Shown here: positions 13,345 through 46,894 of the stretch, piece by piece
Layout: every line of letters begins with the position of its first letter
Position numbering within the stretch: the stretch's first letter is position 1
Assembly: GCA_019638025.1 (NCBI GenBank)
Contig: JAHBUO010000003.1
Coordinates: 53,194-117,193 of the forward strand
Origin: Ignavibacteriaceae bacterium
GTDB taxonomy: Bacteria; Bacteroidota; Ignavibacteria; Ignavibacteriales; Ignavibacteriaceae
Reading direction: 5' to 3'
DNA: 64,000 nucleotides
Translations under genes and position numbers: made by a program
Notes under the pieces: generated by a model
Seen by the model: only the letters and a program-made list of their open reading frames with translations
What the model was told of the DNA's origin: nothing
Databases searched by the model: none

Positions 13345-15348
13345 TTACTTAATTAAAATCATCTTCTTTGTTTTAAATAAATCATTTGCCCTTAGTGTGT
13401 AGAAATAAATACCACTTGATAAACTGCTTGCATCAAACTCAATTGAATGAATTCCATCTTTTTTAACTTCATCAAAAATTGTTACAACTTCATTCCCTAA
13501 CATATCGTAAAGCTTTAAAGAGGTTTGTCCCTCTGCAGCGAGTTGAAATGAAATTGTCGTTCTTGGATTAAATGGATTTGGATAATTTTGCAGCAGTTCA
13601 AAAGTAAAAGGATGTACATCAATTTCAGCTATTTCGAAATATGTGAATTCACCTGAGAAATCAATCTGCTTTAATCGATATTCATATCTTCCGGATGTCT
13701 TTATCAAATCAACATATTCGTAAGAAGTATTATCTAGAGAGTTTCCTCTTCCTTTTATAAAAGAAATTACTTCCCAATCTTCATTCTTACCATCTTTTTT
13801 CATTCGCTGGACTTCAAATCCATTATTATTTGTCTCGGTTACAGTTTGCCAATTAATGGTTACTTTATTCCCATGATTAAACATTCTGAGATTTACCATT
13901 TCAACAGGAACTTGATAATCTGCTACCGTTGTATAATTTCCGTTAGGAGCGGTCATAGGTTTCGAAATAGTTTTCCCACTTGTTGAGCTTGCAGAAATAT
14001 AGTATTTAATTTTTGTCCCGACGGGTTGGGCGGAAATATATCCAATATATTCAGAGTTTCCATTTGATTGCATTACAACTTGATTATAAAGCTGCTCCCC
14101 ATCAATTTTCCAGAATAAATTAACTTGAGTGATGTTCAGCATTGATTTTACTTTTGCTGAAATTTCAATACCGAATTCATTTTGTACAGATGTTAAATTT
14201 GGTTTATGTGAAATGTATATTGGATTTTTTATTCCCACTTCTTTTGTGATACAATGAATTGCACCCAATGCACCAATAATACCGTTACAATTGATCCCAA
14301 CTACATTGTATCCCGGCATAGCTTCTCTATAAATTCTTAGAGCAGTTGTATCATATTGGACATCATAAGTTGGGACTATTACGGTTTTATTTACAATAAC
14401 TGAGTTTGTAAAAGTCCGATATTGCCCTCCTCCACTCGGGTAACGTCCTGTTGCATCAGGAGGCATTTGAACCCTCACAACTTTATAAGGTCGTCCAAAA
14501 CTATTCATGAAATTTGTTAAGACATAATTCAGATTTGCTTCAATTTGTGGACCATCTGAGATACCTGTTGGATATTGCCCGACCAATAAAGTTTCTTCAT
14601 CCAATAACTTCATATGCATATCGATATGGTGTATTTCATCATAAGGAAGAGTATTCATTTTTATGAAACGATTTATTCCCATAAATTTTTTAATTATTGT
14701 ATCGATTTCGGCTTCTGTCTTCGTCGAATTTTCTGTTAGTACTAGCTTCGAAGCGAATGCCGTTCCCATTCCATCAACCATAAAATTTCCACCGGTGTTA
14801 ACCAAATTGTATGGTGAAGAAGTTGTTTGATAAATCGGAGCATTATAATAATTAGCAAAATAAACTGGGACAACATCATCAGCAGGGCGAGGTCTATTAT
14901 AAACCCAATCAACAATATAGAGACTGTCCACATCATCAGCATAAACTGTCCATGGGCCATAATCTCTCACCCAAATAGAATTATATCCGGTGATTAGAAA
15001 ATTCACATTAGTAAGTGGAACTCCGCCGGAAGTTAAGTATGATTTTACAGAATTTGAATCCGAACATACGATAAAAACTTTTCCTTCCTCTTGAGCATAA
15101 TCTACTATTTGACGCAATATTGAGGTATAAGAAGTCCATGTGATAATTATTCCTTCCAACTCTTCCCACTCTGCCATTGTTCTGACATTTCTTACGGGAG
15201 GGGTTATGTAATCCACATTTATTGCAGGCGGCGTGTAAGTTTTTAATAATTCCTTTTCATGGTCAGTTAAATAATGAGGTAGATTTTGGCTATATAAGTT
15301 GGGAATAAATAGAATCAGAATAATTAGGAGTGAAAATTTTGCTTTCAT
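13345..15348 (-). CDS. Secreted agmatine deiminase / Porphyromonas-type peptidyl-arginine deiminase family protein with a T9SS C-terminal sorting domain
   Basis: Signal peptide. PAD_porph motifs are present: WVRDYGP, NRPRPADD, GGNFMVDG, HIDMHMKL, and catalytic Cys GAIHCITKE. About 300 extra C-terminal residues end in a type-A T9SS CTD (QNYPNPFNP...GIYFY...KKMILIK). Confidence 0.85.
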   Translation of the reverse strand: MKAKFSLLIILILFIPNLYSQNLPHYLTDHEKELLKTYTPPAINVDYITPPVRNVRTMAEWEELEGIIITWTSYTSILRQIVDYAQEEGKVFIVCSDSNSVKSYLTSGGVPLTNVNFLITGYNSIWVRDYGPWTVYADDVDSLYIVDWVYNRPRPADDVVPVYFANYYNAPIYQTTSSPYNLVNTGGNFMVDGMGTAFASKLVLTENSTKTEAEIDTIIKKFMGINRFIKMNTLPYDEIHHIDMHMKLLDEETLLVGQYPTGISDGPQIEANLNYVLTNFMNSFGRPYKVVRVQMPPDATGRYPSGGGQYRTFTNSVIVNKTVIVPTYDVQYDTTALRIYREAMPGYNVVGINCNGIIGALGAIHCITKEVGIKNPIYISHKPNLTSVQNEFGIEISAKVKSMLNITQVNLFWKIDGEQLYNQVVMQSNGNSEYIGYISAQPVGTKIKYYISASSTSGKTISKPMTAPNGNYTTVADYQVPVEMVNLRMFNHGNKVTINWQTVTETNNNGFEVQRMKKDGKNEDWEVISFIKGRGNSLDNTSYEYVDLIKTSGRYEYRLKQIDFSGEFTYFEIAEIDVHPFTFELLQNYPNPFNPRTTISFQLAAEGQTSLKLYDMLGNEVVTIFDEVKKDGIHSIEFDASSLSSGIYFYTLRANDLFKTKKMILIK

Positions 15349-15810: not shown

Positions 15811-17703
15811 CTACTTCATCAATAGCATTTTATTGATAGAAGTCTTACCATTTACCGAGAGTCTATAAAAATAAATCCCGCTTGTTAGTGAATATTTTTG
15901 TGCATCGAAATCAATTTCAAATATCCCGTGACTCTGTTCCGAATTAATTAGCACTGCAACTTCTTTTCCGAGGATATCATAAACACTAAGTCTAACAAAA
16001 TTATTATCTCCATTATTTGGAATTGAGAATTTAATCTTTGTAACCGGATTAAAAGGATTCGGATAATTTTGAAATAGTTTATAATCTGTTATAACTGAAC
16101 TTAAATATTCCTCACTCTCTATATCCTTTGTTGAAGTTATAATCACATCAGGAGAGAGTTTTCTGTTTATTAATAGCATTGTGGCATCTGCAAAAATATA
16201 CTTTCCCGGAATAATATTCCTATTATCAAGTTTTAGTACAGTTTGAGTTCCTTCACTCAAAAAAACATCTCCTAAAAATGTCCATCCGTTGTTATTGTTA
16301 TCCTTTTGGTCAACTAACAAGAGAAGCGAATCTGTAGCCGAGTAAAGCGTATAATGTGCGTTTTGTGAAAAGATTGTATTCGGGACTAAGTATGAATATA
16401 CTCTATAATATGCCGTAGCGGGAATCTCAAATGTATACGTAATTGACGCATAACTTGTATCATTAGTCCAGAGTGCATTGGGATTGTATCCCGGGATTGC
16501 TATCTGCTGCCAATTTCCGGTTTTTGTTGCACCGGATTCATTTTCATTTACTATTAATCCTTTCGGTCTCCATAAATTTCCATTTCGGTAAGGAAGTAGT
16601 GCCGGAGTCGTATAATATTGGGTTTTCAATATATTTCCCAATTGTTCGCTATTTGCTTTTAATGCTTCATAAAAGAAATACGTTTCTCCTTTTACATTAT
16701 ATGCACGATTAGTATCAATAGTTTGTTGAAAAAATAAAGGGTCAATAACATATGAGCCGGCTTTTGCTAAAACTCCGGCAAAGAAAATATCTCGTTTAGA
16801 TGCTGAAGTAAATGCTAATGAATTTTTAAGTTCATTAGTGTACTGATGAATATTAGTCCGATATAGCTGCGGAATAAAATTATCTACAATGCCCGAATCA
16901 ACCCATGTACGAGAATCTTGTAAATAATTATCTAATCCCCACGGATACACTGAAGGGGCAGATGAGACAATGTAATTTTCATTTCTAACTTTAACTGAAT
17001 CTCTTAATCTACTAAAGAATTGATTTAGCTTCCCTGCTCTCCATATTTTCCAATTATAATTATAAAAATCATTTGGTGGATTATTCCCATTATGTTCAGC
17101 TTTATATAGTGCAACTGTAACCGAATCATAACCACCTTCAATCGGCATTGCCGGAAGTCTATCATCTCCTTGTATTCCATCAACTTCGTAATTGTCAAGC
17201 ACTTCAGTAATAAGTGAAGTAAGAAAATTTTGCACATCCGGATGAGTACCAGCCATCCAATCAAAACCATTTTTTACGACTAAGTTTCCTTGATTATTCA
17301 GTGCTTTCCAACTTGGATATTTTGCGAGAATATGTCCTCCATTTAAGGAGTATGAAGATGAAAAACCGAATTCAAACCAAGGAATAACTTCAATACCATT
17401 ACGATGAGCTTCAATAATCAATCTTTTTAACGGATCTCTTCCGGCAAATGTTGAAATAATCGGGGCACCAAAAAGTTCATTCATAATTTGACTTTGATAA
17501 ATCGTATAACCTTTATTCCAAACGACAGGAAAGACTACATTAACACCGATGTCGCTTAAAAAATTCATAGCATTTGCAATAGTTTTATCACTATTTAGCA
17601 CATCACTATCAACATTCGTAAGCCATACGCCTCTTAACTCAGATTTGGTTTGAGGTAAGATTATTAATTGAAAAACACAAAAAAGAATAAATAACTTTTT
17701 CAT
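15811..17703 (-). CDS. Glycoside hydrolase-like family 10 (GHL10/DUF187, YngK-type) protein with a T9SS C-terminal domain
   Basis: Signal peptide. The TIM-barrel-like N-terminal half is paralogous to the upstream gene (RGVWLTNVDS, WFEFGFS, VDGIQGDDRLPAMP). A middle domain of about 200 aa follows, then a T9SS CTD (QNYPNPFNP...GIYFYRL). Confidence 0.85.
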   Translation of the reverse strand: MKKLFILFCVFQLIILPQTKSELRGVWLTNVDSDVLNSDKTIANAMNFLSDIGVNVVFPVVWNKGYTIYQSQIMNELFGAPIISTFAGRDPLKRLIIEAHRNGIEVIPWFEFGFSSSYSLNGGHILAKYPSWKALNNQGNLVVKNGFDWMAGTHPDVQNFLTSLITEVLDNYEVDGIQGDDRLPAMPIEGGYDSVTVALYKAEHNGNNPPNDFYNYNWKIWRAGKLNQFFSRLRDSVKVRNENYIVSSAPSVYPWGLDNYLQDSRTWVDSGIVDNFIPQLYRTNIHQYTNELKNSLAFTSASKRDIFFAGVLAKAGSYVIDPLFFQQTIDTNRAYNVKGETYFFYEALKANSEQLGNILKTQYYTTPALLPYRNGNLWRPKGLIVNENESGATKTGNWQQIAIPGYNPNALWTNDTSYASITYTFEIPATAYYRVYSYLVPNTIFSQNAHYTLYSATDSLLLLVDQKDNNNNGWTFLGDVFLSEGTQTVLKLDNRNIIPGKYIFADATMLLINRKLSPDVIITSTKDIESEEYLSSVITDYKLFQNYPNPFNPVTKIKFSIPNNGDNNFVRLSVYDILGKEVAVLINSEQSHGIFEIDFDAQKYSLTSGIYFYRLSVNGKTSINKMLLMK

Positions 17704-18854
17704 TTATAATTATTAAACTCCGGAAACTTTACTTTACCTTGATTATAATTATTTTCGAGATACTGAATATGCTTTTTCAATCCTTCGTAGAAAAAGAAAA
17801 CTTCTCCATTCAGGCCATTTTCTCTATTATACTCTATCATCTCATTTAAATATTTTTCTGATGAATAATATGCACCCACTTTAATTAATACTCCCGGGTA
17901 AATTCTCCAAAGGTCTTGAGTAGGGACTTGTTCTTTTACAATATCTGTTAATGCACTTTGATATTTTGAAAGATCATATCTATAAACTTGTGGACAAACG
18001 AGTTCGACAATCCCTCTTCTCAGCCATTCAGGCCAATCTTGTAAATACTCCTCTTTACTCCACGGATAAATACTCGGTGACATTGACACAATTACATTAT
18101 TGTTGATTGCTTTCACTCTTGAATATAACTTCTCAAGAAAATTTGTAAGTATATCAGCTCTCCATTGCACCCAATCTTCATCTTTAAAATTAGTTGGTGG
18201 ATTTTTCCCCTCATGAGATTTTTTATAAAGAGAAACAGTAAAATCATCGTAACCACCTTCAGAAGGCATTGCAGGAAGTCTATCATCACCTTGAATACCG
18301 TCAACATTATAGTTTGTTACAACTTCTTCAATCAAAGAAAGCATAAAATTTTGAGCTTCCGGATGGAATGCATTCATCCAATCGAAACCGTTTTTAACAA
18401 CCAAATTTCCATCCGATTTTTTGGATGCCCATTCAGGCTTTTTCTTCAGAATGTGTCCGCCATCTAATTGATAAGAGGTCGAAAATCCAAACTCAAACCA
18501 AGCAAACACTTTTATATTTCGTTTATGAGCCTCTTCGATAACTTCTTGAAGTGGGTCTCGCCCAATAAATGCTGAATCAATCTCAACATCAAATAAGTTT
18601 TTCATTACTTTACTTGGATATAGAGTCATACCTTTATTATAAGTAACAACGAAAATTACATTGAGTCCGAGACGTTCACATAACTCAACTGCTTCAGAGA
18701 TTTTTTCGCGTGAATTTAAAACTTCGCTATCGACATTAGTTAACCATACTCCACGAACCCCTTCAGTTATTGATTCGGAATTCACTTTTTGTGAAAAACT
18801 AATAGTCAAACTAGTTAATAGAAAAACAAACAATACAATAAAATATTTTTTCAT
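17700..18854 (-). CDS. Glycoside hydrolase-like family 10 (GHL10/DUF187) protein, shorter paralog without a T9SS domain
   Basis: Signal peptide and the same conserved blocks as 15811-17703 (RGVWLTNVDSEVLNS, WFEFGFSTSY, NVDGIQGDDRLPAMPSEGGYD). ATGA stop/start overlap with the downstream paralog. Confidence 0.85.
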   Translation of the reverse strand: MKKYFIVLFVFLLTSLTISFSQKVNSESITEGVRGVWLTNVDSEVLNSREKISEAVELCERLGLNVIFVVTYNKGMTLYPSKVMKNLFDVEIDSAFIGRDPLQEVIEEAHKRNIKVFAWFEFGFSTSYQLDGGHILKKKPEWASKKSDGNLVVKNGFDWMNAFHPEAQNFMLSLIEEVVTNYNVDGIQGDDRLPAMPSEGGYDDFTVSLYKKSHEGKNPPTNFKDEDWVQWRADILTNFLEKLYSRVKAINNNVIVSMSPSIYPWSKEEYLQDWPEWLRRGIVELVCPQVYRYDLSKYQSALTDIVKEQVPTQDLWRIYPGVLIKVGAYYSSEKYLNEMIEYNRENGLNGEVFFFYEGLKKHIQYLENNYNQGKVKFPEFNNYK

Positions 18855-18870
18855 TTGAATTAGTTTATAT

Positions 18871-18893
18871 GAAAAAGGCGTATCAAGTACGCC
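18871..18893 (-). terminator. Putative rho-independent terminator after the OMP operon
   Basis: Stem GGCGTA/TACGCC (18877-18882 with 18888-18893), followed on the minus strand by TTTTT (plus-strand A-run 18872-18876). Confidence 0.55.
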
Positions 18894-18908
18894 AAATTCA
18901 GATTAATG

Positions 18909-19622
18909 TTAGAAATTTAGTTTTAATTTTATTCCCGCTCTCAATTCAGCCATCTGAAATGTACTCACATTTTCTAAATCAATTTTTAGTGCTGGCCATA
19001 GCTCGCCTATTATAATTTTATATTGAGCTCCAAGAGTAAACCACACAGGCCCGTATAATTTAATAGCCGTTTCAGCACCAATATTAAAGCCACCACTCCA
19101 CTCAGACTGCTGCTTTTCAGGAACATCTATATAATCGACTAGTAGGAGTGAATCACTAGAATTTCTGGTTACAAGTGAGTCGATAAAATCTCTTCTATTA
19201 CCGATCCATTTATAAATACCGAATCCAAAGTTCACATTTGTTTCCCAAAAGTCTGATGCAAAATAATTTACGTTTGCATTTGCACTCAATCCGATAATTT
19301 CAAGATTCATTTTTAATTTATTTAGAGGGAAACTTAGTTGTTTTTCCGACCCATCAACCGTGAACTTCCTTTTTACATTCAAGCGATCGTAATTAACTTT
19401 ATCAAAATTGAAATATTCAATCTTACCATACCAAATCCAATCTTTGCTTGTATTCTTACCAAAGACTGCTGAGTATCCTAAAGTAGGTTTAAATCTGTCT
19501 TTTAATGATCCTATTGGAGCATAATAGGAAACGTCACCTCCCGAATACCAGATGTTATTCTGAGCATTGGAAAAATTGGCTGCAATGATTAATACCAAGA
19601 GAGCTAGTAAATTTATTTTCAT
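18909..19622 (-). CDS. Small outer-membrane beta-barrel protein (hypothetical)
   Basis: Signal peptide, alternating amphipathic beta-strand pattern, and a C-terminal aromatic residue (…KLKLNF). Confidence 0.65.
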   Translation of the reverse strand: MKINLLALLVLIIAANFSNAQNNIWYSGGDVSYYAPIGSLKDRFKPTLGYSAVFGKNTSKDWIWYGKIEYFNFDKVNYDRLNVKRKFTVDGSEKQLSFPLNKLKMNLEIIGLSANANVNYFASDFWETNVNFGFGIYKWIGNRRDFIDSLVTRNSSDSLLLVDYIDVPEKQQSEWSGGFNIGAETAIKLYGPVWFTLGAQYKIIIGELWPALKIDLENVSTFQMAELRAGIKLKLNF

Positions 19623-19624
19623 AT

Positions 19625-20383
19625 TTAATATTGGAATGTAATTCCGAGTTTAGTTGAAATATAATTATTAAAGATATAGTTATCGTAACCAAGTTTACCT
19701 TCAGTTTTTAGAATGTGAGTATAATTCAATGATGCGTCAATTCTAAATGCATCATTCAAAAGATAACCTAGATTAATACCTCCGTAAACAACCAAAGGGT
19801 TTCCATTTTTTGAAGGAGCAAAGTTTCTGAATTTGTATTGAAATACATAACCGATTTGTTCATACTTTTTTGACCATTCTTCTTCTAAAAACATTCTTCT
19901 TGAATAAAATATAATCCCACCTCCAATCGAAGGTTGAACAAAAAACTTTTCTGCGAATGTAAAATCACCATTAAGCGTGATAATTAATGGAATCACATCC
20001 ATTTTCTGAATTGATTGTATTGTTGCTCTTAGCGTTGTATCTGTTAAATCAGCATTAACATTGCCACGATAACGATTATCCCAGAAATCCCACTTCCACT
20101 GAATTAGCCCAGAATCTTGCTGAACACTAAATAGTTGATAACCACCAATCAAACTAACTGAAAGATTGTCGAGGAGTTTATAATCAATTTTAAGTGTACC
20201 ACCAACTGCATCTGCTTTTGTTACTGCTAACCTTTTGCTCCCACTGATTGAATAATCACCATTTAATGAAATTGATGATAATTGCCCAAAAGTGTAGTGG
20301 GACAGAAATAGCATGATAAAAACGACAAAAGCAATATTTTTATAAATTCTTGTATTATTCGAAACTCTACTTCTCATATTCAT
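19625..20383 (-). CDS. Small outer-membrane beta-barrel protein (hypothetical)
   Basis: Hydrophobic signal/anchor, beta-strand periodicity, and a terminal ...GITFQY. It is 2 nt from the downstream OMP gene. Confidence 0.65.
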   Translation of the reverse strand: MNMRSRVSNNTRIYKNIAFVVFIMLFLSHYTFGQLSSISLNGDYSISGSKRLAVTKADAVGGTLKIDYKLLDNLSVSLIGGYQLFSVQQDSGLIQWKWDFWDNRYRGNVNADLTDTTLRATIQSIQKMDVIPLIITLNGDFTFAEKFFVQPSIGGGIIFYSRRMFLEEEWSKKYEQIGYVFQYKFRNFAPSKNGNPLVVYGGINLGYLLNDAFRIDASLNYTHILKTEGKLGYDNYIFNNYISTKLGITFQY

Positions 20384-20389
20384 ATCAAA

Positions 20390-21331
20390 TTAATTTACTC
20401 CAAGTTGAAGTGATAGCCGCATTATCTTACCAAGACGACCGTAATCGGAATAAGCAAAATCAAGAGTAAGTGGAATTGATAAATTTGGATTAACACCAAA
20501 ACCAAAACTGTAAGATTCTTCATCATAAAAGAATTTATAACCTAATCGAAGTGAAAGCATATTCATCCAAGAAAGTTCAAGTCCGGTATTTAATTTTTCA
20601 TCTGCATCATTTGGATGAAGCGCCTCAACAAGTGCAGTAACTTTGTACTCAGTTGTTTCATCACCAAATACTTCACCGGCTAAGCCTAATCTTAACAATG
20701 CCGGCATCTTAAATGGATCATTAATGTATTGAGCATCCACACCAAAATTTTGAATTGTTGCTGCAATTCTTAGACTTCCCAATCCAGTATAATAGAGCAT
20801 GCCTCCATCGAATAAAAAATTATCAACTGAATAAATATCAATCCCCTCTTTAACATATTTTGCTCCAACCCCAAAAGAAAAACGATCTGTTAATTTTCTG
20901 GAATATGTAATTCCGACTGCCAAAGCATTTGCATTAAAAGTACCTAAAACCTCGTAAACGCGCTGCCCTGCAATCTTTTTTGTTTTTGGCATTGAACCAT
21001 AGTCAACTCCTATAAATCCTACTCCAAAAACTCCGAATGAAGTATTGAAAATATACGAAGAAGCATAATGTTTAATGTCAGCAATCCATGGCGAGTAAGA
21101 TGCAAAAAAAGAATGAGTTTGTTCTGTGAATCCTGTAGAAGCTATATTACTAAATATTCCGGAAGCATTCATATCTGATAAAGTAATTGATGATTCACCC
21201 AATGCGGCACCACGAGCTGTTACCGGAAGTTCTAAAAAAACAAATCCGGCAGTTGCATTTTTCTTAAACTCTTGCTGAGCAAAAGATATTGAGAGTGTTA
21301 AAATAAAAAGTATTAAAATTCTATATTTCAT
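20390..21331 (-). CDS. PorV/PorQ-family outer-membrane protein (T9SS-associated shuttle-like beta-barrel)
   Basis: Signal peptide, then the family-typical start ATAGFVFLELPVTARGAALGESS and a Gly/aromatic-rich barrel ending ...LQLGVN. Confidence 0.75.
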   Translation of the reverse strand: MKYRILILFILTLSISFAQQEFKKNATAGFVFLELPVTARGAALGESSITLSDMNASGIFSNIASTGFTEQTHSFFASYSPWIADIKHYASSYIFNTSFGVFGVGFIGVDYGSMPKTKKIAGQRVYEVLGTFNANALAVGITYSRKLTDRFSFGVGAKYVKEGIDIYSVDNFLFDGGMLYYTGLGSLRIAATIQNFGVDAQYINDPFKMPALLRLGLAGEVFGDETTEYKVTALVEALHPNDADEKLNTGLELSWMNMLSLRLGYKFFYDEESYSFGFGVNPNLSIPLTLDFAYSDYGRLGKIMRLSLQLGVN

Positions 21332-21359
21332 TAAATAAAATTACTCCAATTAAAAGTCA

Positions 21360-23453
21360 TTATCTGACAATTGCAAATTTCCCTATTTTTTTACCGTAAG
21401 GAGATTCTATGTGATAAATATAAACTCCGCTTACAACAAATTGACCAAAATCAGTCACTTGATCCCATGTAACAATTCCGCCAACATTATCACCGACATT
21501 TATTGTTTTGACTAAATCTCCTCTGACGGTATAAATCCTAATTGTTGATGGATTTGGAACATTAACAAACTGAATATCACTCCCCTCTCCCGGACGTGAA
21601 AAACCTTCACCGATAATAAATGGATTTGGAACAACTAGAACATCATTCACTTCATTTTTAGCCGGAAGAGTTGCAAGAAAAGGTTCGCTCATTCTGTTAG
21701 CAAATATTGATGATTCCATTGGTGGAACAGCATTTGAATTTGTTTCGGGAAATCTTGCTGCCGGATTAATCGGCCAGCTCGCTTTTCCGGTATCGAAAGC
21801 TGTGAGTGAGTAATAGTATGACCTTCCTATTTCAACAGATGAATCTACATACGAATATTTATTTGTTAAAAGATCGAAATAATTTGCATCCCCTTTTGTG
21901 ATAGTTGCGATTTTCTCCCATGGTCCGTATGGTAAAAAGTCCGAGCGATAAATATTATAACCTGCCAAATCTAACTCACCATCATCAGGGTCAGGGTGAG
22001 ATTCAGTCTCATTTCCCCACAAAATAACATTTGCTGCAAGTTGAGTTGCTCCTTTGTAAAAATCTAATGTAAATTTTGGAGCAGCAGGTGGATCAGGATG
22101 ATTCATATTATTGTCAAAAGTAAATTTTGCTCTGTTATATGAATCAGTAAAAGCTTTATTGCTCGCAGTAAAAAGTGCGTTCTGTGTTAAATTTTTATCG
22201 AATAAAAATTTTGCATCCATCCCATTTACGATTTCAGCAAGAACGATTCTAATTGAATCACCGGGAAATAAATTCCAAGGTCCGAGAGCCATCAAAGACC
22301 ACATTCTGTTTTTAAGCATGTAGTTTGTATCGGCAAAACTTGTAACAAATCGATAGGCGTTTGAAGGATTTTGAAGAACACTATATTTCCCTTCATTTGT
22401 GCCGGATACACCTGTGAAAGGACCACTTAAATCGAGCGAGTTTTCAGCTGCAGACCACCCTACTCTCCCGGTCCCAATTCTTGTGGCTTGGCCTGTTGAA
22501 TCGGGGGAAGAATAAAATAGTGACACACCTACAAATCCGGGGGCTAAATACTCACCTGAAGGTTGACCATTGATTATTCTACCCAACGAGTTTGAAAAGC
22601 CGTAACTCTCATCAATACCTTGCGTTGTCTTATAATCTGCTGAACGTCCCCAAATCATTTTTTTGACTGGGTCGTAGAAGAACCAAGTATTTCTTGCTCC
22701 GGGAGTTTCTTGCCTAAACAAAACATTCCATGAACGAGAATTTGATTGGAGACCATAATTTAATAGAGTATAGAGTTTATAAAGTGAATCAACAATTACT
22801 CTATTTGGATTAGCTGCTAAAATTTCATTCGAAATATTTTTAAATACATATTCATAAATGATATAATTTTCATCCTTCATTGAACCGTTCCATTGATGCA
22901 CTCTACGCGTAACTCTCAATGGAAGCTGTCTTTCAAGGTCATTTTCTCGAAAATAATTTACATTATACTCCCAGATAGTTTCAATAACCTCTTCGCCAAC
23001 GTTAGGATTTGTTCTTAACCAATGATTTTCACCATTTTTATAGAGATGCCCATGTTTTCTCACAATATATTTTGAACCGGGTTCATCAGATACAGTCCCT
23101 GCATACATTGACCAATCTTCAACTACCAAAACTGAATCATTTGATTTTTTTGCTCCAATCCAAAACCCACCTGCAACCATATGAGACGGCGACCCACCGA
23201 TATCATCTCTAATCCAAGACTCATCAAATGCAGGCCAATCTAAACTAGGTCCTGTCTTTCGCCAATTATTATAAGTTGGACCAACTTTTCCAAATTGCAC
23301 ACTTTGCCATAACGAACCTCTATTAAAAAACTGTAATGAAGATTCAACTTGTGGTTTAATTTCAAAACTGACTAACAAAATAATGGTTGCAACTAAAATA
23401 ATATTCTGAATTTTCTTACTCATATACTGATTATTTTTATTTGAATTAATCAT
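21360..23453 (-). CDS. Secreted protein of unknown function with an Fn3-like module and a FlgD-Ig/T9SS-like C-terminal beta-sandwich
   Basis: N-terminal signal/anchor. I recognised no catalytic motif. An Fn3-like stretch is present (GYNIYRS...YYYSLTAFD), and the C-terminus reads VVPNPF...RIYTVRGDLV...GVYIYHIE...FAIVR. TAATG overlap with the upstream TBDR gene. Confidence 0.7.
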   Translation of the reverse strand: MINSNKNNQYMSKKIQNIILVATIILLVSFEIKPQVESSLQFFNRGSLWQSVQFGKVGPTYNNWRKTGPSLDWPAFDESWIRDDIGGSPSHMVAGGFWIGAKKSNDSVLVVEDWSMYAGTVSDEPGSKYIVRKHGHLYKNGENHWLRTNPNVGEEVIETIWEYNVNYFRENDLERQLPLRVTRRVHQWNGSMKDENYIIYEYVFKNISNEILAANPNRVIVDSLYKLYTLLNYGLQSNSRSWNVLFRQETPGARNTWFFYDPVKKMIWGRSADYKTTQGIDESYGFSNSLGRIINGQPSGEYLAPGFVGVSLFYSSPDSTGQATRIGTGRVGWSAAENSLDLSGPFTGVSGTNEGKYSVLQNPSNAYRFVTSFADTNYMLKNRMWSLMALGPWNLFPGDSIRIVLAEIVNGMDAKFLFDKNLTQNALFTASNKAFTDSYNRAKFTFDNNMNHPDPPAAPKFTLDFYKGATQLAANVILWGNETESHPDPDDGELDLAGYNIYRSDFLPYGPWEKIATITKGDANYFDLLTNKYSYVDSSVEIGRSYYYSLTAFDTGKASWPINPAARFPETNSNAVPPMESSIFANRMSEPFLATLPAKNEVNDVLVVPNPFIIGEGFSRPGEGSDIQFVNVPNPSTIRIYTVRGDLVKTINVGDNVGGIVTWDQVTDFGQFVVSGVYIYHIESPYGKKIGKFAIVR

Positions 23454-26400
23454 TAAAAACCAAATCCTAAAGTGAAAAATACTTGACGTGGAATATTTCT
23501 ATATGCTTTGAAAGGGGCGTTTATATAACTTTTCCTTAACTGATCATCCGGAATTCTTGGATTCCCCGGGTCAGCCATAGTATATCCATATTCTACCCAT
23601 CTAATTATGTCGTCTGAAGATTCACTCCCCGGCATAGGAGTTAACCATTTATTATCTAACAGATTCATTACTCTAACTCCTAAAACTATCCGATATCCCG
23701 AAAAATTAATATTCTTAATAAAGTTGAAGTCAAAATTTTGTTCTAACGGATATCTTCTATTATTCACAGCATCTTTTAAGTCGAATGAAGTGACATAAGT
23801 AAATGGAGCACCCGACATCGCTTTGTATGTTAAACTAAATGTCGAATTTTGAAATGGCTTAATTCCAAAGATAGAAAGACCTTCTTCATCCTTTAAATTA
23901 TACTGGAGTAAACCGCTGAAGTTATGAGTTCTATCATTTACAGATAAAAATTCTCCTGTATAATTACGTCGTGCAAAATTTCGAGAGTTATCCGGAAATA
24001 GAACTTGTGGTCCATAATTACCTTCCGTAGTTTGCGATAAACTATAACTTAAACGATATGACCACTCTTCATAAGTAACTTTCTCAAATGTGACATCAAT
24101 ACCAACAGTAGCACCAAAAGTATTATTTGCAAAAGTTGTATAAGTATATAATTTCTCGTTATCATCAGTATAACCGGCCGGTTCTCGAGATTGAGTGCCC
24201 GTAAAAGAAGCAATCCTTTGTAAACCGATTTGTGTAACTCTATCATTATAATAGAGAGCCACATCTAAACGATGTTTTTCATCAACCATTTGTTGAAGCC
24301 CAAATTCATATTGAATAGTCTTTTTCGGTTCAAGATTTGGATTGCCGTATCCTGCCCATCCTGATTGAGTTCTTTTCGAAAGTCCGTGTGAAAAAATTGG
24401 CATCGATGCAAAATGACCATATTGAATTCTGAACGCTGTGGATTCTCCAATCGGGAAAGAGACCCCAATTCTGGGTAACAGAATAAATTGTGTTTCGGAA
24501 GGGACTGTCTCAGGATTTCCTAAAGCAGGGCCTGATCTCCCCTGATAAAAAATATTATATGGGTCAATTGGATAATTTGATTGGAAATTGTAAGCTTCTG
24601 CACGAAGGCCAATATTTGCAATCATCCCCGAGTATTCCATCTTATCTTGAAAATATACTGCAACATTATATGGATAAGCTCGATAATACTCTGCAAATCC
24701 GGCTCTCACAAGAAATGAATTTGCTTGATAACTTGAATTAACACCATTATTAAACATATCCCAATAATAGAATCTGATTCCTGCTTTTAACAGATTCGTC
24801 GGGATTATTTGATTAGTATAATCTGCACTTATACTCCATTGTTCGGTTCTTGTATCTTGATAATAAAGTGTACTCACTGCATCCGGTGGTCTAAAATATT
24901 GGTTCGACTCCCACCAGGTTCCGGACCGTAATACAGTTCCGCTTGCGTCGTATAAACTATCTAACACATCTCGTTGTTGAGTATATCCCGGAAGATATTC
25001 ATACGGTAGCTCATATTTTTCTTGCTGATGAGTTACTGTTGCTTCAATAAAAGAAGTATTACTAATCGTATAAATAAAATTAACACTCTGAGCAACTGTT
25101 CTTTCAAGTCGAACCGGATCAATTTTTACATAATACTTTGACGATAAGCCGGGAGGTGAAAATGCAATTCCTGACCAACGGATATCTTCGGAACCAGACC
25201 AAATTCCTCCTTTATAATTCTGAAAACTTAACATTGTTTTAATTTTCAGTTCGGTCATGGGCTGATAGGTTAAGTTGAGAATATAATTCTGATAAATCTG
25301 ATTTTTCTCAGACGTTGGGAGACGAGTCGGATTCTTTTTATACTCACCTGAGAAATAGAATTTCAATAAATTTGGGTCTTTGCCAAGAGGACCGCCAAAA
25401 CCAACCATATATCTTGTATAAGCATATTGACGGTAATCATACACACCAAGAGGATTATCATCACTTGGAGAATGATTTTTCACCCATAAATCATAAGCCC
25501 AATCCATTTCACGAGTTTCAATCATACTTCGATATGCAGAATCCTCAGCAGTTGCGGTATTTGCCGTGAATCTATCATACAACCACTTATATCTATTCGG
25601 AAGATTTAATTCATTGATTATTGAATTTTTATTATCAATCCAGTGTTGTTTATTCCCCCACTTTTGCCATTCGTAATTTGATTTATCATATAAATACTGC
25701 CCAAAATGATATTGCCCTGCGGGTCGATACTCAGTCCTAAATTCTCCACTAAACTTTGGACTTCCATCCTTTAGAACAACTTTTACAACTCCGGCTTGTG
25801 CATTTCCGTATTCAGCTGAAAAACCGCCTGTTATAAGTTGAAGTTGCTGCACACCCAAAGGATTAACATCGTACTTCCACGAGTTATTAGCTTTTTCTGT
25901 TCCGAATGTACCGGGTCCGCTTGTTGCCGAGTTTGTTTGCTCAACACCATTAATCTGAAAATTGAGTTCATAAGAACCGGAACCTCTAACAGAATAATTT
26001 CCTGTAGCCGACTTTTGAAATCCTGCAGATAGGTCTAATGCTCCACGTAATCCTTCAATTGGAGCAGCTTTAATTTGTGATTCGTTTAGAGTTGAGGATG
26101 AGGAAGTTTGGTCTTTTATAATCTTTGGTTTTTCGGCAACTACAACAACTTGATCAAGCTGAACAGTCGCATCTTTTAATGAAAAATTTTGTGTGGTTGT
26201 TCTATCAATAATAATTTCAACATCTTTTGCAATAATCTTACCATAACCTAAGGAGCTAACTTGAACTGAGTAAATTCCGGGGGGAATGTTCAGGATTACA
26301 TATCGCCCTTCTAAATCAGTGGCTGAGCCGATATTAGTTCCAAGAATTAATACATTAGCACCGATAAGAGGTTCATTTGTAGACGCATCTTTTACGGTTC

Positions 26401-26518
26401 CCGCAAGTTTTCCACGCTGAGATTGTGAGAAGTTTGTGAACGGAATTGCTGTGAAAAATATTATAAAAAGTAAAGTGATTGAAATCTGATTTTGTAGCAA
26501 TTTTATCATGTAGACCAA
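23453..26518 (-). CDS. TonB-dependent receptor with an N-terminal carboxypeptidase-regulatory-like domain
   Basis: Signal peptide, CarbopepD_reg-like domain (GTVKDASTNEPLIGANVLILGT..GATDLEGRY), plug region, large barrel, and a terminal ...FFTLGFGF. An alternative ATG start lies at 26509. Confidence 0.88.
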   Translation of the reverse strand: MVYMIKLLQNQISITLLFIIFFTAIPFTNFSQSQRGKLAGTVKDASTNEPLIGANVLILGTNIGSATDLEGRYVILNIPPGIYSVQVSSLGYGKIIAKDVEIIIDRTTTQNFSLKDATVQLDQVVVVAEKPKIIKDQTSSSSTLNESQIKAAPIEGLRGALDLSAGFQKSATGNYSVRGSGSYELNFQINGVEQTNSATSGPGTFGTEKANNSWKYDVNPLGVQQLQLITGGFSAEYGNAQAGVVKVVLKDGSPKFSGEFRTEYRPAGQYHFGQYLYDKSNYEWQKWGNKQHWIDNKNSIINELNLPNRYKWLYDRFTANTATAEDSAYRSMIETREMDWAYDLWVKNHSPSDDNPLGVYDYRQYAYTRYMVGFGGPLGKDPNLLKFYFSGEYKKNPTRLPTSEKNQIYQNYILNLTYQPMTELKIKTMLSFQNYKGGIWSGSEDIRWSGIAFSPPGLSSKYYVKIDPVRLERTVAQSVNFIYTISNTSFIEATVTHQQEKYELPYEYLPGYTQQRDVLDSLYDASGTVLRSGTWWESNQYFRPPDAVSTLYYQDTRTEQWSISADYTNQIIPTNLLKAGIRFYYWDMFNNGVNSSYQANSFLVRAGFAEYYRAYPYNVAVYFQDKMEYSGMIANIGLRAEAYNFQSNYPIDPYNIFYQGRSGPALGNPETVPSETQFILLPRIGVSFPIGESTAFRIQYGHFASMPIFSHGLSKRTQSGWAGYGNPNLEPKKTIQYEFGLQQMVDEKHRLDVALYYNDRVTQIGLQRIASFTGTQSREPAGYTDDNEKLYTYTTFANNTFGATVGIDVTFEKVTYEEWSYRLSYSLSQTTEGNYGPQVLFPDNSRNFARRNYTGEFLSVNDRTHNFSGLLQYNLKDEEGLSIFGIKPFQNSTFSLTYKAMSGAPFTYVTSFDLKDAVNNRRYPLEQNFDFNFIKNINFSGYRIVLGVRVMNLLDNKWLTPMPGSESSDDIIRWVEYGYTMADPGNPRIPDDQLRKSYINAPFKAYRNIPRQVFFTLGFGF

Positions 26519-26689
26519 TTAAAAATTTTTTATATTTTTACTGAAGAAATTTAGAAACAAACTTGCAAATAAAAAAATTGTTATCGAGCCTCTCAAATGA
26601 GATTTGATACTCAATGAGATGACGAATAATGAACCTTAACATTACAATAAAAGTCAACAAATTTTATCATATTTAATTGAGCAATTCAA

Positions 26690-27541
26690 ATGAAAAAATT
26701 TACTGTATTCAATATTATTAGCGAGCCATTCGAACCGGAAATATTATCCGGATTTCTTTGGGAAACCGAACCATCAGGGATTGAAGAATTAAGCAATTCT
26801 CTAAACCTTTTTTTTGAATCGGAAGATGAAAATATAAAATCAAAATTAGTAGAGATTCTTGATGAACTAAAATCTGATGGTATGCTTGATACTTATGAAA
26901 TAAATTACTCGGTGTTTGAAGATCAGAATTGGAATGAAGAATGGGAAAAAGGGATTAAAGTAATTAATGTGACAGATAAAATTGTAATTAAGCCTACATT
27001 TAGAGACTACAATCCAAAACCGAATGAAATTGTAATCACTATTGACCCCAAAATGTCATTTGGAACCGGCGAGCATCAAACTACAAAATTAATATTATCA
27101 CTTTTAGAGAAATTTGTTTCATCAAATCAAAGGGTTTTAGATGTGGGGAGTGGGACGGCAGTTTTAGCAATTGCTGCTTTGAAACTTGGCGCAACCTCTG
27201 CAGTTGCTGTCGATAACGATGAATGGTGTCTCGATAATGGTATTGAAAATGCAAAATTGAATGATGTTGAGAATTTGTTACAAGTTAAACTCGGAGAAAT
27301 TAAAGATATTGAAGATTCCGACTTTGATTTAATTCTTGCAAACATCCAAAGAAATGTACTTCTGCCAATCGCACCCCAAATTTGTGAGCGGGTCAAAAAT
27401 GATGGATTAATAATTCTAAGTGGATTACTTATCGATGATGAGAAAGTGATTGTAGAAAAATATTCTACATTTGGCTTTAAGCTTTTGGAGAAATCTCAAA
27501 TGGATGAGTGGATTGCATTGGTCTTTCAGAAGACTCTTTAA
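26690..27541 (+). CDS. prmA: Ribosomal protein L11 methyltransferase
   Basis: PrmA layout with IDPKMSFGTGEHQTTKL and the SAM-binding motif VLDVGSGTAVLAIAA, then ANI(Q)... downstream. Confidence 0.9.
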   Translation: MKKFTVFNIISEPFEPEILSGFLWETEPSGIEELSNSLNLFFESEDENIKSKLVEILDELKSDGMLDTYEINYSVFEDQNWNEEWEKGIKVINVTDKIVIKPTFRDYNPKPNEIVITIDPKMSFGTGEHQTTKLILSLLEKFVSSNQRVLDVGSGTAVLAIAALKLGATSAVAVDNDEWCLDNGIENAKLNDVENLLQVKLGEIKDIEDSDFDLILANIQRNVLLPIAPQICERVKNDGLIILSGLLIDDEKVIVEKYSTFGFKLLEKSQMDEWIALVFQKTL

Positions 27542-27544
27542 TAT

Positions 27545-30124
27545 TTATTTCAAGTATACCATTTTTTGAGTTCTGATTATATTATCTGCTTTTAACTGAT
27601 AATAATATACTCCACTTGATAAATGCTTTAGATCAGAATTAGAAAAATCCAACTTAATTGTATATACACCTTGTCTATAAAAACCGGATTTAATTTCAGA
27701 TACTTTCTCTCCAAGAAAATTATAGAGTGATAAATCAATATAAGTATCGAAAGGTAATTTTATTTGAATTTCAGTTTGTGCATTAAATGGATTTGGATAA
27801 TTCTGTGACAGTTCGATAAAATGGAATTCTCCCTCATGCAGTGTTCCATTTTGAGTGGATTTAGTTAGGATGAAAATTTTTCCGGAACGAGTTCCGATAT
27901 ACACATCGTTATTTAGTGAATCAATTCCATCAATTGCAATAGAAGAAATTTCCAAACCAACTGCATTTTCATTATATCCGGGAACAGTATACTTAACTAA
28001 TGAAGAACGAATATCTGAAGCATTTATATCAAAATGAAAAATAGTCCCGTTAAAATATCCATAAATCAGACCATCATTTCCTTCTAATAATTGATTTACA
28101 TAACCACTCTCATAAAAAGCCGGCCCGCCGCAGTATGTATGAAAGAATTGATTGAATACTTGAACACTTACATCCGGATTTAGTGGATAAAAATCACTTA
28201 TGCTCTTGACTGTTAGGGCATCATACACTCGAAGATTATTACAATCTGCCAAAACTATTTTATCCCACTTTTTTGAATATACAATTGATGTTGGAAAAAA
28301 CTCAGGAAATGATGGTATACTTAACTGTTGAAAAGAAGAATTAGAGTTGTCTTTATTGATATCGAATAAAAATACTTTTTTGTCATCAACCGTTCCATAA
28401 AACCTGTGTTTAGATGGAAATGCCTTGTATGATAATGATGTAGTGAATTGTCCACCATCAGCCTTAGCAACAACTTTAGGATTGTTTATCCCCTTTAAAT
28501 CAACTAAAATATATGCCGGGGGTTCTGTTGAATAACTGACTGTAGCCGTTCCAAGAAGCACTTGATCATCTTCTGTAAGAGCCATTGATGTTATCCTACC
28601 TTGTTGAAGAGTGGGATTTAAGTAAGATAAATCAATTACTTTGTCTAACTGATTTGATAAAGACCTAATGCGTAAGTATGGACCTTTGTATAGACCATAC
28701 AAAACTAGGTTATTTGTTTTATCTATTATCATTTTATTAGATTGAACCGCTGTTTTACCAGGAATAGGATTCGGACCATTTATATTTGAGACTCTCCAAT
28801 ACGAATCAACTGAATCAGTCGTCAATTCAGATTCAGAGAAATAAATACTTGAAAATAATTTTCTACTTGCAACTGCTAATCCAGAGATTAATCCTCCCCC
28901 TGTTGGATTTTTAATTTGAGACGGCTCCGGAAGAATTTTAGTATTAACATAAGATGATGTTAAATCGAGTGAAAAAAATATTTTGGGATCATTTGACCAA
29001 CTATGAACACCAACTATGAGATTATTAATTAAATTCTTTCTTCTTGTAATCAATGGAGTATTGTTTTTGTATGGGATATACTTTATTGCGTCAAGTTCAA
29101 TAGTGCCCATATGTAAATACATTGTTCGGTTATAGATAGGAAAATCTTGTTGAATATTGTTCGAGAAAAATAGAGTCGTATCTTGCGGAATAAATGTATG
29201 AGTTGCATTCATATCCTTCAAATTTATTCGTCTTATTTTATAATCGAACAACCAAATAATGTTCTCCTTTATATCAGCCTTAAAATTTGATACTTGCAGA
29301 CGTCCGCTTGTATTTATATTACTTAATTTCTTTTCAATTAAAGGACTCGAAGGGTTATTAATTGAGTAAATAAAGATTGATTCTGTTGCTCCATCCCCTG
29401 CACCCAAATACAACACATCTTCTCCATCATATTTGCCTAATTCAATATCATACACTACCGGAAACGGTTTGTCAAACGTTATTACTTGAAAACCTTTTTC
29501 AGGTATTGTATTTTCAGGTGCGCTCCAACTGCTTATTTTCCACTTGATTATTTTCATGTTATTCTTCTCGTTAAGAATAGCACCAAAGAAAATAAATTTA
29601 TCCCCATTTGGGGCGGTATAAAAAATTGGGTCGTATAAACCTCGAATATTATTAGCACGCAATGTTTCATTTCCAAAAGCGTGGACTTTTTCAGTTGCCG
29701 GATTATAATAAAAAAGATACGGAACTAGCGATACTGCCCCATAGATAAAGTGATTATCGCTCAGTATGGCTTGAATTATTTTCATATCATAATAACCGGG
29801 TTCATTTGGTTCATTGGTTTCACCCGGATAACCTACCGAACCTAAATCTTTTTCAATTATCGGAGGATTTGAGAATGGATTTATTTTATAAATATGGGCA
29901 TTTGGGTAAGTTCCGACAAATAAACTCCCTTGAAAGTAAGTTGAATACCAGAGTATCTCTTTGGTATAACCCGGGGAAACGTCTTGTTGAGTAATGGTCG
30001 ATTTTTTAAAAAGTTCAATAACTTTTCTACTGTTTTGTTGTCCTGCTAATTCAATGTTTGAAGATACCACAGATACCAACAAGAGCAATCCCCAAAATCT
30101 TTTCATAATTTGAATAGATTTCAT
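27545..30124 (-). CDS. Large secreted protein of unknown function (probable beta-propeller repeats) with a T9SS C-terminal domain
   Basis: Signal peptide and about 760 aa with no motif I recognise. Terminal type-A CTD (QNYPNPFNAQT...GVYYYQL...KMVYLK). Confidence 0.75.
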   Translation of the reverse strand: MKSIQIMKRFWGLLLLVSVVSSNIELAGQQNSRKVIELFKKSTITQQDVSPGYTKEILWYSTYFQGSLFVGTYPNAHIYKINPFSNPPIIEKDLGSVGYPGETNEPNEPGYYDMKIIQAILSDNHFIYGAVSLVPYLFYYNPATEKVHAFGNETLRANNIRGLYDPIFYTAPNGDKFIFFGAILNEKNNMKIIKWKISSWSAPENTIPEKGFQVITFDKPFPVVYDIELGKYDGEDVLYLGAGDGATESIFIYSINNPSSPLIEKKLSNINTSGRLQVSNFKADIKENIIWLFDYKIRRINLKDMNATHTFIPQDTTLFFSNNIQQDFPIYNRTMYLHMGTIELDAIKYIPYKNNTPLITRRKNLINNLIVGVHSWSNDPKIFFSLDLTSSYVNTKILPEPSQIKNPTGGGLISGLAVASRKLFSSIYFSESELTTDSVDSYWRVSNINGPNPIPGKTAVQSNKMIIDKTNNLVLYGLYKGPYLRIRSLSNQLDKVIDLSYLNPTLQQGRITSMALTEDDQVLLGTATVSYSTEPPAYILVDLKGINNPKVVAKADGGQFTTSLSYKAFPSKHRFYGTVDDKKVFLFDINKDNSNSSFQQLSIPSFPEFFPTSIVYSKKWDKIVLADCNNLRVYDALTVKSISDFYPLNPDVSVQVFNQFFHTYCGGPAFYESGYVNQLLEGNDGLIYGYFNGTIFHFDINASDIRSSLVKYTVPGYNENAVGLEISSIAIDGIDSLNNDVYIGTRSGKIFILTKSTQNGTLHEGEFHFIELSQNYPNPFNAQTEIQIKLPFDTYIDLSLYNFLGEKVSEIKSGFYRQGVYTIKLDFSNSDLKHLSSGVYYYQLKADNIIRTQKMVYLK

Positions 30125-32168: not shown

Positions 32169-32178
32169 TTTGTACCTC

Positions 32179-40160: not shown

Positions 40161-40454
40161 TTATAAAATCCAATCTTTCAGAAAAGGTTGATATTTTACC
40201 GGTTCAAACTCAAAGAATTTGTAATCTGCAACATTATTCAACTTATATGGGTCATTGTTAAAAAAATTTTCAAGAGTTTCTAAACTTTCACTTTTACAGA
40301 TAACTATTCCTCCATCTTTTGGATTTCGAGGTCCGGACATTAAAATCTGTCCATCGTCATATCCAAGCTGTAAAAATTCACGATGGCTCTGAACAAACTT
40401 CAGAACATCTTCAAATGGGACTTTATAATTAATATGGACTACAAATTTTTGCAT
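40161..40454 (-). CDS. YciI-family protein
   Basis: 97-aa protein with a YCII-like pattern (H.EFL...Y..G.....GP......GG..I....S.E....F...DPY). Confidence 0.7.
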   Translation of the reverse strand: MQKFVVHINYKVPFEDVLKFVQSHREFLQLGYDDGQILMSGPRNPKDGGIVICKSESLETLENFFNNDPYKLNNVADYKFFEFEPVKYQPFLKDWIL

Positions 40455-42097: not shown

Positions 42098-42112
42098 CTA
42101 AATTCATCCTTC

Positions 42113-45019: not shown

Positions 45020-45021
45020 AT

Positions 45022-46878: not shown

Positions 46879-46894
46879 ATTTTCTCCGTAAACT

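Follow-up and report, generated by a model that had tools for sequence, protein, structure and literature searches.

A conserved gene cluster of Ignavibacteria joins a TonB-dependent receptor to a sorting-tailed partner protein and its own PorV/PorQ-family barrel: a candidate nutrient-capture system distinct from SusC/SusD

In Bacteroidia, glycan capture at the outer membrane is explained by the SusC/SusD system. The sister lineages of Bacteroidia are abundant in sludge, sediments and soils and rich in TonB-dependent receptors and in type IX secretion system (T9SS) cargo, yet to our knowledge an equivalent of SusC/SusD is largely undescribed in them. Two further precedents are relevant. Receptors of Bacteroides outside the SusC family carry alternative lipoprotein lids, namely BtuG, XusB, DUF4876 proteins and others (Price et al., bioRxiv 10.1101/2023.03.17.533168), and the T9SS components PorZ and PorU keep their C-terminal tails, bound to PorQ and PorV, with cognate PorV-like barrels proposed in a review to protect tails from cleavage (PMC10202324). 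Here we analyse a 64,000-nucleotide stretch of contig JAHBUO010000003.1 from an Ignavibacteriaceae bacterium (hereafter the window), in which seven genes encode a TonB-dependent receptor, a 697-residue partner protein, a PorV/PorQ-family barrel, two small barrels and two GHL10 hydrolases. The source organism is one of the uncultured Ignavibacteria from bioreactor or sludge metagenomes. The cluster is real and strongly conserved, and its best explanation as a whole, to which we assign a probability of about 0.58, is an outer-membrane machine for nutrient capture and import that works without SusC or SusD; the mechanism set out below is plausible.

Direct reading of the sequence placed all seven open reading frames (ORFs) on the minus strand in the same orientation, and reproduced the coordinates, gene overlaps and hairpin of the original prediction, a model-generated annotation made from the letters of the window. 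The main features are as follows.

23453-26518, minus strand: TonB-dependent receptor, 1021 amino acids (aa); ORF with a TTG start and an ATG three codons in.
21360-23453, minus strand: 697-aa partner protein; ORF without a Pfam family.
23172-23351, minus strand: N-region of the partner, residues 35-94; conserved stretch.
21363-21641, minus strand: variant T9SS-type C-terminal domain (CTD) of the partner, residues 605-697; from alignment and structural model.
20390-21331, minus strand: 313-aa PorV/PorQ-family barrel (FadL-like); from NF033709.
19625-20383, minus strand: 252-aa small outer-membrane barrel; from paralogy to the 237-aa family and a weak OMP_b-brl match.
18909-19622, minus strand: 237-aa small outer-membrane barrel; from AlphaFold2 (AF2) and Foldseek.
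17700-18854, minus strand: GHL10a, 384 aa; GHL10 domain.
15811-17703, minus strand: GHL10b, 630 aa, with its CTD at 15814-16065; GHL10, Golvesin_C and Por_Secre_tail domains.

With one genome scanned per species, the partner turned up in 167 genomes; 80 loci were then fetched and searched with the window proteins by tblastn. Among loci with enough flanking sequence, the receptor lies directly upstream of the partner in 70 of 71 and the PorV/PorQ-type barrel downstream of it in 75 of 75, followed by the 252-aa barrel (73/73) and the 237-aa barrel (66/66). These five genes form a unit that is fixed across Ignavibacteria, with cluster proteins 50-70% identical throughout the class. GHL10 genes come directly after the small barrels in 50 of 57 loci, mostly as two or three paralogs, and the remaining seven have the five-gene core without adjacent GHL10 genes. 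The counts rule against a chance adjacency of unrelated outer-membrane genes, which we rejected as having a negligible probability: the same order is found in essentially every informative Ignavibacteria locus and in other phyla. The original prediction had staked itself on gene order in related genomes, and that order is kept across Ignavibacteria.

Two variations on this arrangement lie upstream. In 46 loci a protein of about 470 aa, with a canonical T9SS CTD and no other family, is encoded directly before the receptor on the same strand (for example L040:5484-6911 and L011:5273-6673). The window's clade is without it and has a divergent prmA gene instead, so that the earlier description of a seven-gene locus is right for this genome but not for most relatives, which have this eighth gene. 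About 24 further loci share with L040 (L040:1691-5333) a divergent pair upstream of the cluster, consisting of a hydantoinase/oxoprolinase A-like gene and a gene for a 491-aa protein of no family.

Relatives of the partner extend far beyond the class. With a profile of the partner family, 7177 representative proteins were matched at E<1e-3, and 2266 of them also at E<1e-10; many matched over the last ~100 to ~310 residues alone, that is, over the tail, or over the helix, Fn3 domain and tail together. For distant relatives of 25-35% identity, two of them assigned to candidate division KSB1, the order receptor, partner, barrel was present in all seven contexts fetched, with a CarboxypepD_reg-type receptor on one side and a barrel of 314-358 aa on the other; the window barrel is 27-32% identical to the KSB1-type barrels. 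Neighbours of these distant trios include GH106, GH127, GH130 and DUF4838 proteins, a LacI regulator, a PfkB kinase, RbsD/FucU and GFO/IDH/MocA oxidoreductases.

The reverse scan, starting from barrels on metagenome contigs, used the KSB1-type subset, the mixed barrel alignment having no sufficiently conserved stretch. It found a tail-bearing ORF of 612-1381 aa directly upstream of the barrel in 57 of 66 loci, and a receptor further upstream in 22 of the 22 tail-bearing loci with enough sequence. Among the nine exceptions, five have the receptor itself directly upstream of the barrel. Three of these five (L116, L139 and L144) have a tail-bearing ORF further upstream, so that the order is permuted to tail protein, receptor, barrel, and partner-barrel adjacency is not absolute. 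The trio of receptor, partner and barrel recurs in other phyla beside varied sugar-degrading genes, in lineages that are rich in T9SS cargo. A literature search, with limited coverage of subscription journals, found no description of the trio; the cluster is probably undescribed so far and combines known parts.

The partner has a Sec signal peptide, no lipobox cysteine and no Pfam match. Homologues at least 52% identical over the full length occur throughout Ignavibacteria, all annotated as 'hypothetical'. Its AF2 model (predicted local distance difference test score, pLDDT, 76; predicted TM-score 0.76) comprises a signal-peptide helix, a low-confidence segment (29-94), a β-rich core (95-420), a long helix (424-447), an Fn3-like domain at about 456-560 and a seven-strand β-sandwich tail (605-697). 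Foldseek against the PDB returned low-TM matches at the level of single domains, to Fn3 arrays, the N-terminal sandwich of GH94, a polysaccharide lyase and, at rank 45, PorZ. Residues 35-94 are 58% identical across orthologs and hold many invariant W, G and D residues, yet were modelled with pLDDT below 50; this segment may fold only on a partner.

The tail, about 95 residues long, carries VVPNPF, with a nine-residue insert after PNPF, then SGVYIYHIE, and it ends in GKFAIVR. Its motifs can be aligned one by one with those of the window's four canonical type-A CTDs, with which it shares PNPF, a central G..V, SG[VI]Y.Y and a terminal basic residue, while the insert and the ending are specific to its family and are found again in thousands of proteins. 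Among curated models its best matches, weak and below cut-off, are the tails of PorZ and PorU; the PorZ model NF052228 scores 25.2 bits against a cut-off of 260, on the tail only. Across orthologs no part of the partner is better conserved than the tail, at 73% identity to the window versus 55% for the core, and the neighbouring true CTD, that of GHL10b, is the least conserved folded domain of its protein, at 42% versus 61% for the catalytic domain. The partner tail is thus a homologue of T9SS type-A sorting domains under unusually strong constraint, which is not expected of a signal that is cut off and discarded. The AF2 model and the CTD alignment agree with the earlier reading of the partner as a protein with an Fn3-like module and a T9SS-like tail. 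Since the partner lacks a lipobox, its exposure at the surface would need the T9SS.

Two narrower assignments were rejected. The partner is not a PorZ ortholog, given 25 bits against 260, no clear propeller match and no twin propellers in the model. Nor is the pair a type-B CTD with a PorP/SprF barrel: the tail is a type-A relative and the barrel belongs to the PorV/PorQ family.

That family assignment rests on NF033709, which the 313-aa barrel matches over residues 28-310 with 176.6 bits against a cut-off of 90, as the original prediction had proposed. The barrel stays below the equivalog cut-offs for PorV (NF033710, 65.4 versus 250) and PorQ (NF033711, 99.3 versus 220). No second PorV-like gene was found within the 64-kb window. 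Elsewhere, two distant trios were assigned, by longest-contig figures, to one 5.46-Mb contig, although one of these two was also displayed on a 5.36-Mb contig of another sample. The scores under both equivalog cut-offs, together with the two trios assigned to one contig, make a housekeeping PorV role for the barrel unlikely.

A dedicated barrel beside a sorting tail could still belong to ordinary T9SS cargo with a private shuttle, in which the tail is cleaved by the sortase, the protein is released or attached to lipopolysaccharide, and the barrel merely escorts it, and perhaps GHL10b too, without forming a stable complex. The tail is indeed homologous to cleavable type-A CTDs, PorV has been described as a shuttle, and the barrel covaries with the GHL10b CTD (partial r 0.34, p 0.003). 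A disposable signal, however, should not exceed the rest of its protein in conservation; the tail also has a family-specific insert and ending, found in thousands of proteins; and the nearly obligate adjacency of the private barrel (57/66, above) likewise speaks against this reading. We consider such a shuttle unlikely.

The two small proteins downstream are outer-membrane barrels, again as originally proposed. Neither has a Pfam or NCBIfam family, the 252-aa protein showing a weak OMP_b-brl match (E 0.03), and their families are distant paralogs (hhalign 96%, E 3e-9, 201 columns). The 237-aa protein was modelled by AF2 with pLDDT 93.3, and its closest Foldseek matches are the OmpA transmembrane domain, OmpW, OmpX and NspA.

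The receptor comprises a signal peptide, an N-terminal CarboxypepD_reg-like domain, a plug and a large barrel. Three domain models score above cut-off, CarbopepD_reg_2 with 71 bits (cut-off 32.2), Plug with 34.9 (23.9) and OMP_b-brl_3 with 41.1 (27), which bears out the earlier call of a CarbopepD_reg-type receptor. Between the N-terminal domain and the plug, which is 77% conserved across orthologs, lies the sequence DQVVVVAEK, a possible TonB box. On the SusC/RagA model TIGR04056 the receptor reaches 60.1 bits against a cut-off of 368.25, with a match limited to residues 37-300, and searches of Pfam and NCBIfam at E≤0.01 gave no SusD match for any of the seven proteins. The cluster hence has no adjacent SusC-like and SusD-like pair, the strict definition of a polysaccharide-utilisation locus. 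The earlier label of a 'SusD-less' receptor is correct in that SusD is absent, but the receptor is not a SusC-family protein that is missing its SusD; we rejected 'SusC without SusD' because these scores place it in a different receptor clade. Five Melioribacteraceae loci, among them L026 (17651-18463), carry an ExbB/MotA-family gene a short way downstream of the GHL10 genes, linking energising components of the TonB system to the cluster in that family.

Covariation among the proteins was explored in 42 species with all seven genes, using partial Mantel tests in which phylogenetic signal was removed via the remaining proteins. The receptor barrel covaries most strongly with the partner core (partial r 0.71, p 0.001), then with the partner N-region, residues 35-94 (0.59, p 0.001), and with the 252-aa barrel (0.47, p 0.001); the small barrels may be structural partners of the receptor. 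Between the receptor N-terminal domain and the partner core the covariation is modest (0.39), and between the partner core and the PorV/PorQ-type barrel it is not significant (partial r -0.14). The PorV/PorQ-type barrel covaries with the GHL10b sorting domain beyond the value of 0.21 that it shows for the partner tail, and might also handle the GHL10b enzyme. As a hint only, this pattern fits an arrangement with the core on the receptor and the tail on the barrel.

The same data bear on an explanation that dispenses with the T9SS. The barrel would be a channel of the FadL type that admits a small ligand, hydrophobic or amphipathic, the partner would be periplasmic and meet the CarboxypepD_reg domain of the receptor, and the likeness of its tail to CTDs would reflect a shared Ig-like fold. 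PorV-family barrels are homologues of FadL, some trio barrels weakly match Toluene_X, the tail stays under the curated CTD cut-off, and the receptor N-terminal domain does covary with the partner core. The strongest covariation is nevertheless seen for the receptor barrel rather than for the periplasmic domain of the receptor. The tail, moreover, has PNPF, SGxYxY and terminal K/R motifs in common with CTDs of the same genome, the barrel exceeds the PorV/PorQ family cut-off, and the lineages that bear the trio are rich in T9SS cargo. We regard this explanation as quite improbable.

Both hydrolases score well above the cut-off of 27.9 bits on the GHL10 model PF02638 (GHL10a 227.9, GHL10b 182.8), and they are 49% identical to each other. 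GHL10a carries a signal peptide but lacks a sorting domain. GHL10b adds a Golvesin_C domain (55.7 bits) and a T9SS CTD (Por_Secre_tail PF18962, 35.1 versus 27; TIGR04183, 38.5 versus 23), in line with the paralog pair, one member carrying a CTD, that had been read from the sequence. With a signal peptide alone on GHL10a and a CTD on GHL10b, a surface/periplasm split is plausible: GHL10a is probably periplasmic and GHL10b probably secreted or attached to the surface. GHL10a matches the structure of Cwp19 (5oq2, E 1.6e-13) and is 26% identical to E. coli DigH (E 3e-22), which itself scores 453 bits on GHL10. The DD motif (Asp195/196 of Cwp19) is invariant in 55 and 50 orthologs of the two paralogs. 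Cwp19 is a lytic transglycosylase acting on peptidoglycan (PMC6016235), and DigH is a housekeeping division enzyme that degrades denuded glycan strands (PMC12288456).

In 18 loci a gene for a DUF5009 membrane protein follows the GHL10 genes (for example L073:19757-21178 and L037:19646-21001), while the window has none. DUF5009 proteins cluster with the transmembrane acetyltransferase HGSNAT (PMC12423673), and the related NagX serves glucosamine use and is distantly related to a transporter of MurNAc (PMC9007349). The position of DUF5009 genes in these relatives points to amino-sugar substrates. An amino-sugar glycan is, on balance, a slightly favoured substrate, and peptidoglycan strands specifically are a tentative proposal. 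The 'glycan-acquisition' part of the original prediction is drawn from the GHL10 genes and from the neighbours in relatives, and is a putative assignment as far as these go.

The DigH relationship also invites a housekeeping envelope function, in which the cell's own wall or surface polymer would be remodelled or recycled: like DigH, the GHL10 enzymes would attack denuded glycans of the same cell, and released fragments would be taken back by the receptor. It suits a cluster that is class-wide, apparently single-copy and highly conserved (167 species genomes, 50-70% identity) and whose locus holds no regulator, and DigH sets the precedent of a housekeeping division enzyme. A GHL10b with a T9SS CTD, in contrast, would work extracellularly; in seven loci the five-gene core has no GHL10 genes beside it; and homologous trios elsewhere lie in typical catabolic sugar loci. 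We therefore also hold a housekeeping function to be improbable.

For the nutrient-capture machine we propose the following sequence of events. Sec would carry the partner across the inner membrane, and the T9SS would take it across the outer one. Its tail would remain uncut and stay on the dedicated barrel, as the PorZ tail does on PorQ and the PorU tail on PorV, and this docking would tether a non-lipoprotein partner to the cell surface beside the receptor. There the partner core, and perhaps the N-region too, would contact the outer face of the receptor and help to capture ligand, in the role of SusD or of an alternative lid. Secreted GHL10b would cut the polymer outside; after import through the receptor, the fragments would be trimmed by GHL10a in the periplasm. 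The weakest step is the substrate, for which an amino-sugar glycan such as peptidoglycan strands is the likeliest candidate.

Several points weigh against this proposal. We infer the surface location of the partner, the retention of its tail and its contact with the receptor, and all of the evidence is computational. The original prediction had the T9SS deliver the partner, the GHL10 enzyme or both to a place beside the receptor, held there by the barrel; for the partner, CTD homology, tail conservation and core-receptor covariation fit this indirectly. The tail falls below the TIGR04183 cut-off (19.2 versus 23 bits) and has no match to Pfam PF18962, and the partner fold gave no clear carbohydrate-binding or enzymatic match in the Foldseek search of the PDB. 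Covariation of the tail with the PorV/PorQ-type barrel is weak (partial r 0.21, p 0.02), and neighbouring genes may covary through shared history, so that covariation counts as a hint only. The ortholog group is apparently single-copy and class-wide, which would be unusual for a niche-specific sugar locus. Both GHL10 groups have an invariant WFEFGF in place of the WFNPYR of Cwp19 and DigH, so that the Arg proposed for Cwp19 catalysis (Arg132) is absent. This replacement suggests a distinct GHL10 subfamily, in which the Glu might possibly serve as catalyst. A GHL10 protein of Deinococcus, DogH, has been reported active on starch (PMC9967864), and specificity is accordingly not transferable within GHL10.

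A wider version of the proposal is more speculative, and we advance it only tentatively. The variant tail and the PorV/PorQ-type barrel would constitute a third class of T9SS signal with a cognate barrel, next to type A with PorV and type B with PorP/SprF, mounting exchangeable, non-lipidated ligand-binding proteins on TonB-dependent receptors as an independently evolved counterpart of SusCD in Ignavibacteria, KSB1 and allied lineages. The copy described here would be the most conserved and possibly the ancestral one, scavenging the cell-wall glycans of other bacteria.

The genes of the cluster are closely packed. Stop and start codons overlap at 23453 (TAATG) and at 17700-17703 (ATGA), both read directly, and the remaining junctions are gaps of 28, 6 and 2 nt, followed by a 54-nt spacer that holds a hairpin before GHL10a. 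For the 697-aa gene an alternative start at Met11 (MSKKIQNIILV...) is possible, by which the overlap would become a 29-nt gap. The elements around the genes are listed below.

18877-18893, minus strand: hairpin GGCGTA-CTTGA-TACGCC followed by TTTTT; from sequence reading.
26519-26689, minus strand: intergenic region upstream of the receptor, adjoining divergent prmA.
26690-27541, plus strand: prmA, divergent, sharing this intergenic region with the receptor.

The hairpin, with a stem of 6 bp including 4 G-C pairs ahead of TTTTT, separates the barrel genes from those for the hydrolases and may act there as a partial terminator; the region shows no enrichment of terminator-like sites (3 found versus 5.9 expected). 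The region 26519-26689 is likely to be the promoter region of the cluster. A promoter scan upstream of the receptor gave one weak sigma-70-like match, at 26689-26661, at chance level. The divergent arrangement with prmA is found again in related loci. A sludge metatranscriptome (X24), the only RNA run found, gave no information on operon structure: one 160-nt contig is identical to 22533-22692, within the partner gene, and the other matches are short and spurious. This contig is a weak sign that the partner gene is transcribed in situ, with DNA carry-over possible.

Other genes of the window touch on the same themes. On its two sides the cluster is accompanied by three more genes for canonical T9SS cargo, a Porphyromonas-type arginine/agmatine deiminase (13345-15348), an 859-aa protein (27545-30124) and a subtilase (30153-32219), none of them syntenic with it in relatives. 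The downstream PAD-type and S9 peptidase genes were likewise rejected as members of the unit, having no synteny in relatives. Four co-oriented genes at 40454-47818 encode a BadF/BadG-type kinase, a 618-aa permease of the major facilitator superfamily, a 968-aa fusion of GH3 with a β-lactamase fold, and a second GH3; they would fit the processing of amino sugars or muropeptides and might act downstream of the cluster.

If the proposed mechanism is true, a T9SS-exported, barrel-docked receptor partner would link two hallmark machines of the superphylum. It would also assign a role to a family whose unannotated members number in the thousands (the 2266 being representative clusters) and supply a new annotation marker for substrate-utilisation loci outside Bacteroidia. 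Should the substrate be peptidoglycan, the cluster would offer a concrete mechanism for the recycling of necromass by Ignavibacteria in bioreactor communities.

Each part of the cluster has a counterpart among known systems. The hydrolases resemble DigH of E. coli and Cwp19 of Clostridioides difficile in their strong GHL10 scores and DD motif, and the characterised members cut glycan strands of peptidoglycan; they differ in their low identity (26% to DigH), in having WFEFGF for WFNPYR, and in the T9SS CTD and Golvesin_C-like domain of one paralog. The tail and barrel recall SprB and SprF of Flavobacterium johnsoniae, where a type-B CTD has an adjacent PorP/SprF-like cognate barrel. Here too a class of sorting domain is encoded next to its barrel, but the tail is a type-A relative, the barrel is of the PorV/PorQ family, and the link is with a receptor instead of gliding adhesins.

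Closer still are PorZ-PorQ and PorU-PorV of Porphyromonas gingivalis, in which a T9SS-exported protein is thought to keep its CTD on a FadL-like barrel. The curated matches of the tail to PorZ and PorU agree with this, as does a barrel that scores higher on PorQ than on PorV, although the partner is not PorZ and the barrel remains under both equivalog cut-offs. The genes for the pair stand together with those for a TonB-dependent receptor and hydrolases, so the pair probably serves uptake rather than the attachment of cargo.

On the receptor side, the alternative lids of Bacteroides likewise combine a non-SusC receptor with a conserved surface partner unrelated to SusD and predicted to sit on the receptor's outer face. 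Those lids are lipoproteins that follow the lipoprotein route, whereas the partner described here has no lipobox and would need the T9SS and a barrel. With SusC/SusD (RagA/RagB) the cluster shares a receptor with a CarboxypepD_reg-like extension encoded directly before a putative surface partner, hydrolases that follow and appear split between surface and periplasm, and the presence in some genomes of several copies, each with different enzymes. It departs from SusC/SusD in a receptor that fails the SusC/RagA model, in a partner that is neither SusD-like nor a lipoprotein, and in a locus that has no regulator and instead brings together a CTD-like tail, its own PorV/PorQ-type barrel and two small barrels.

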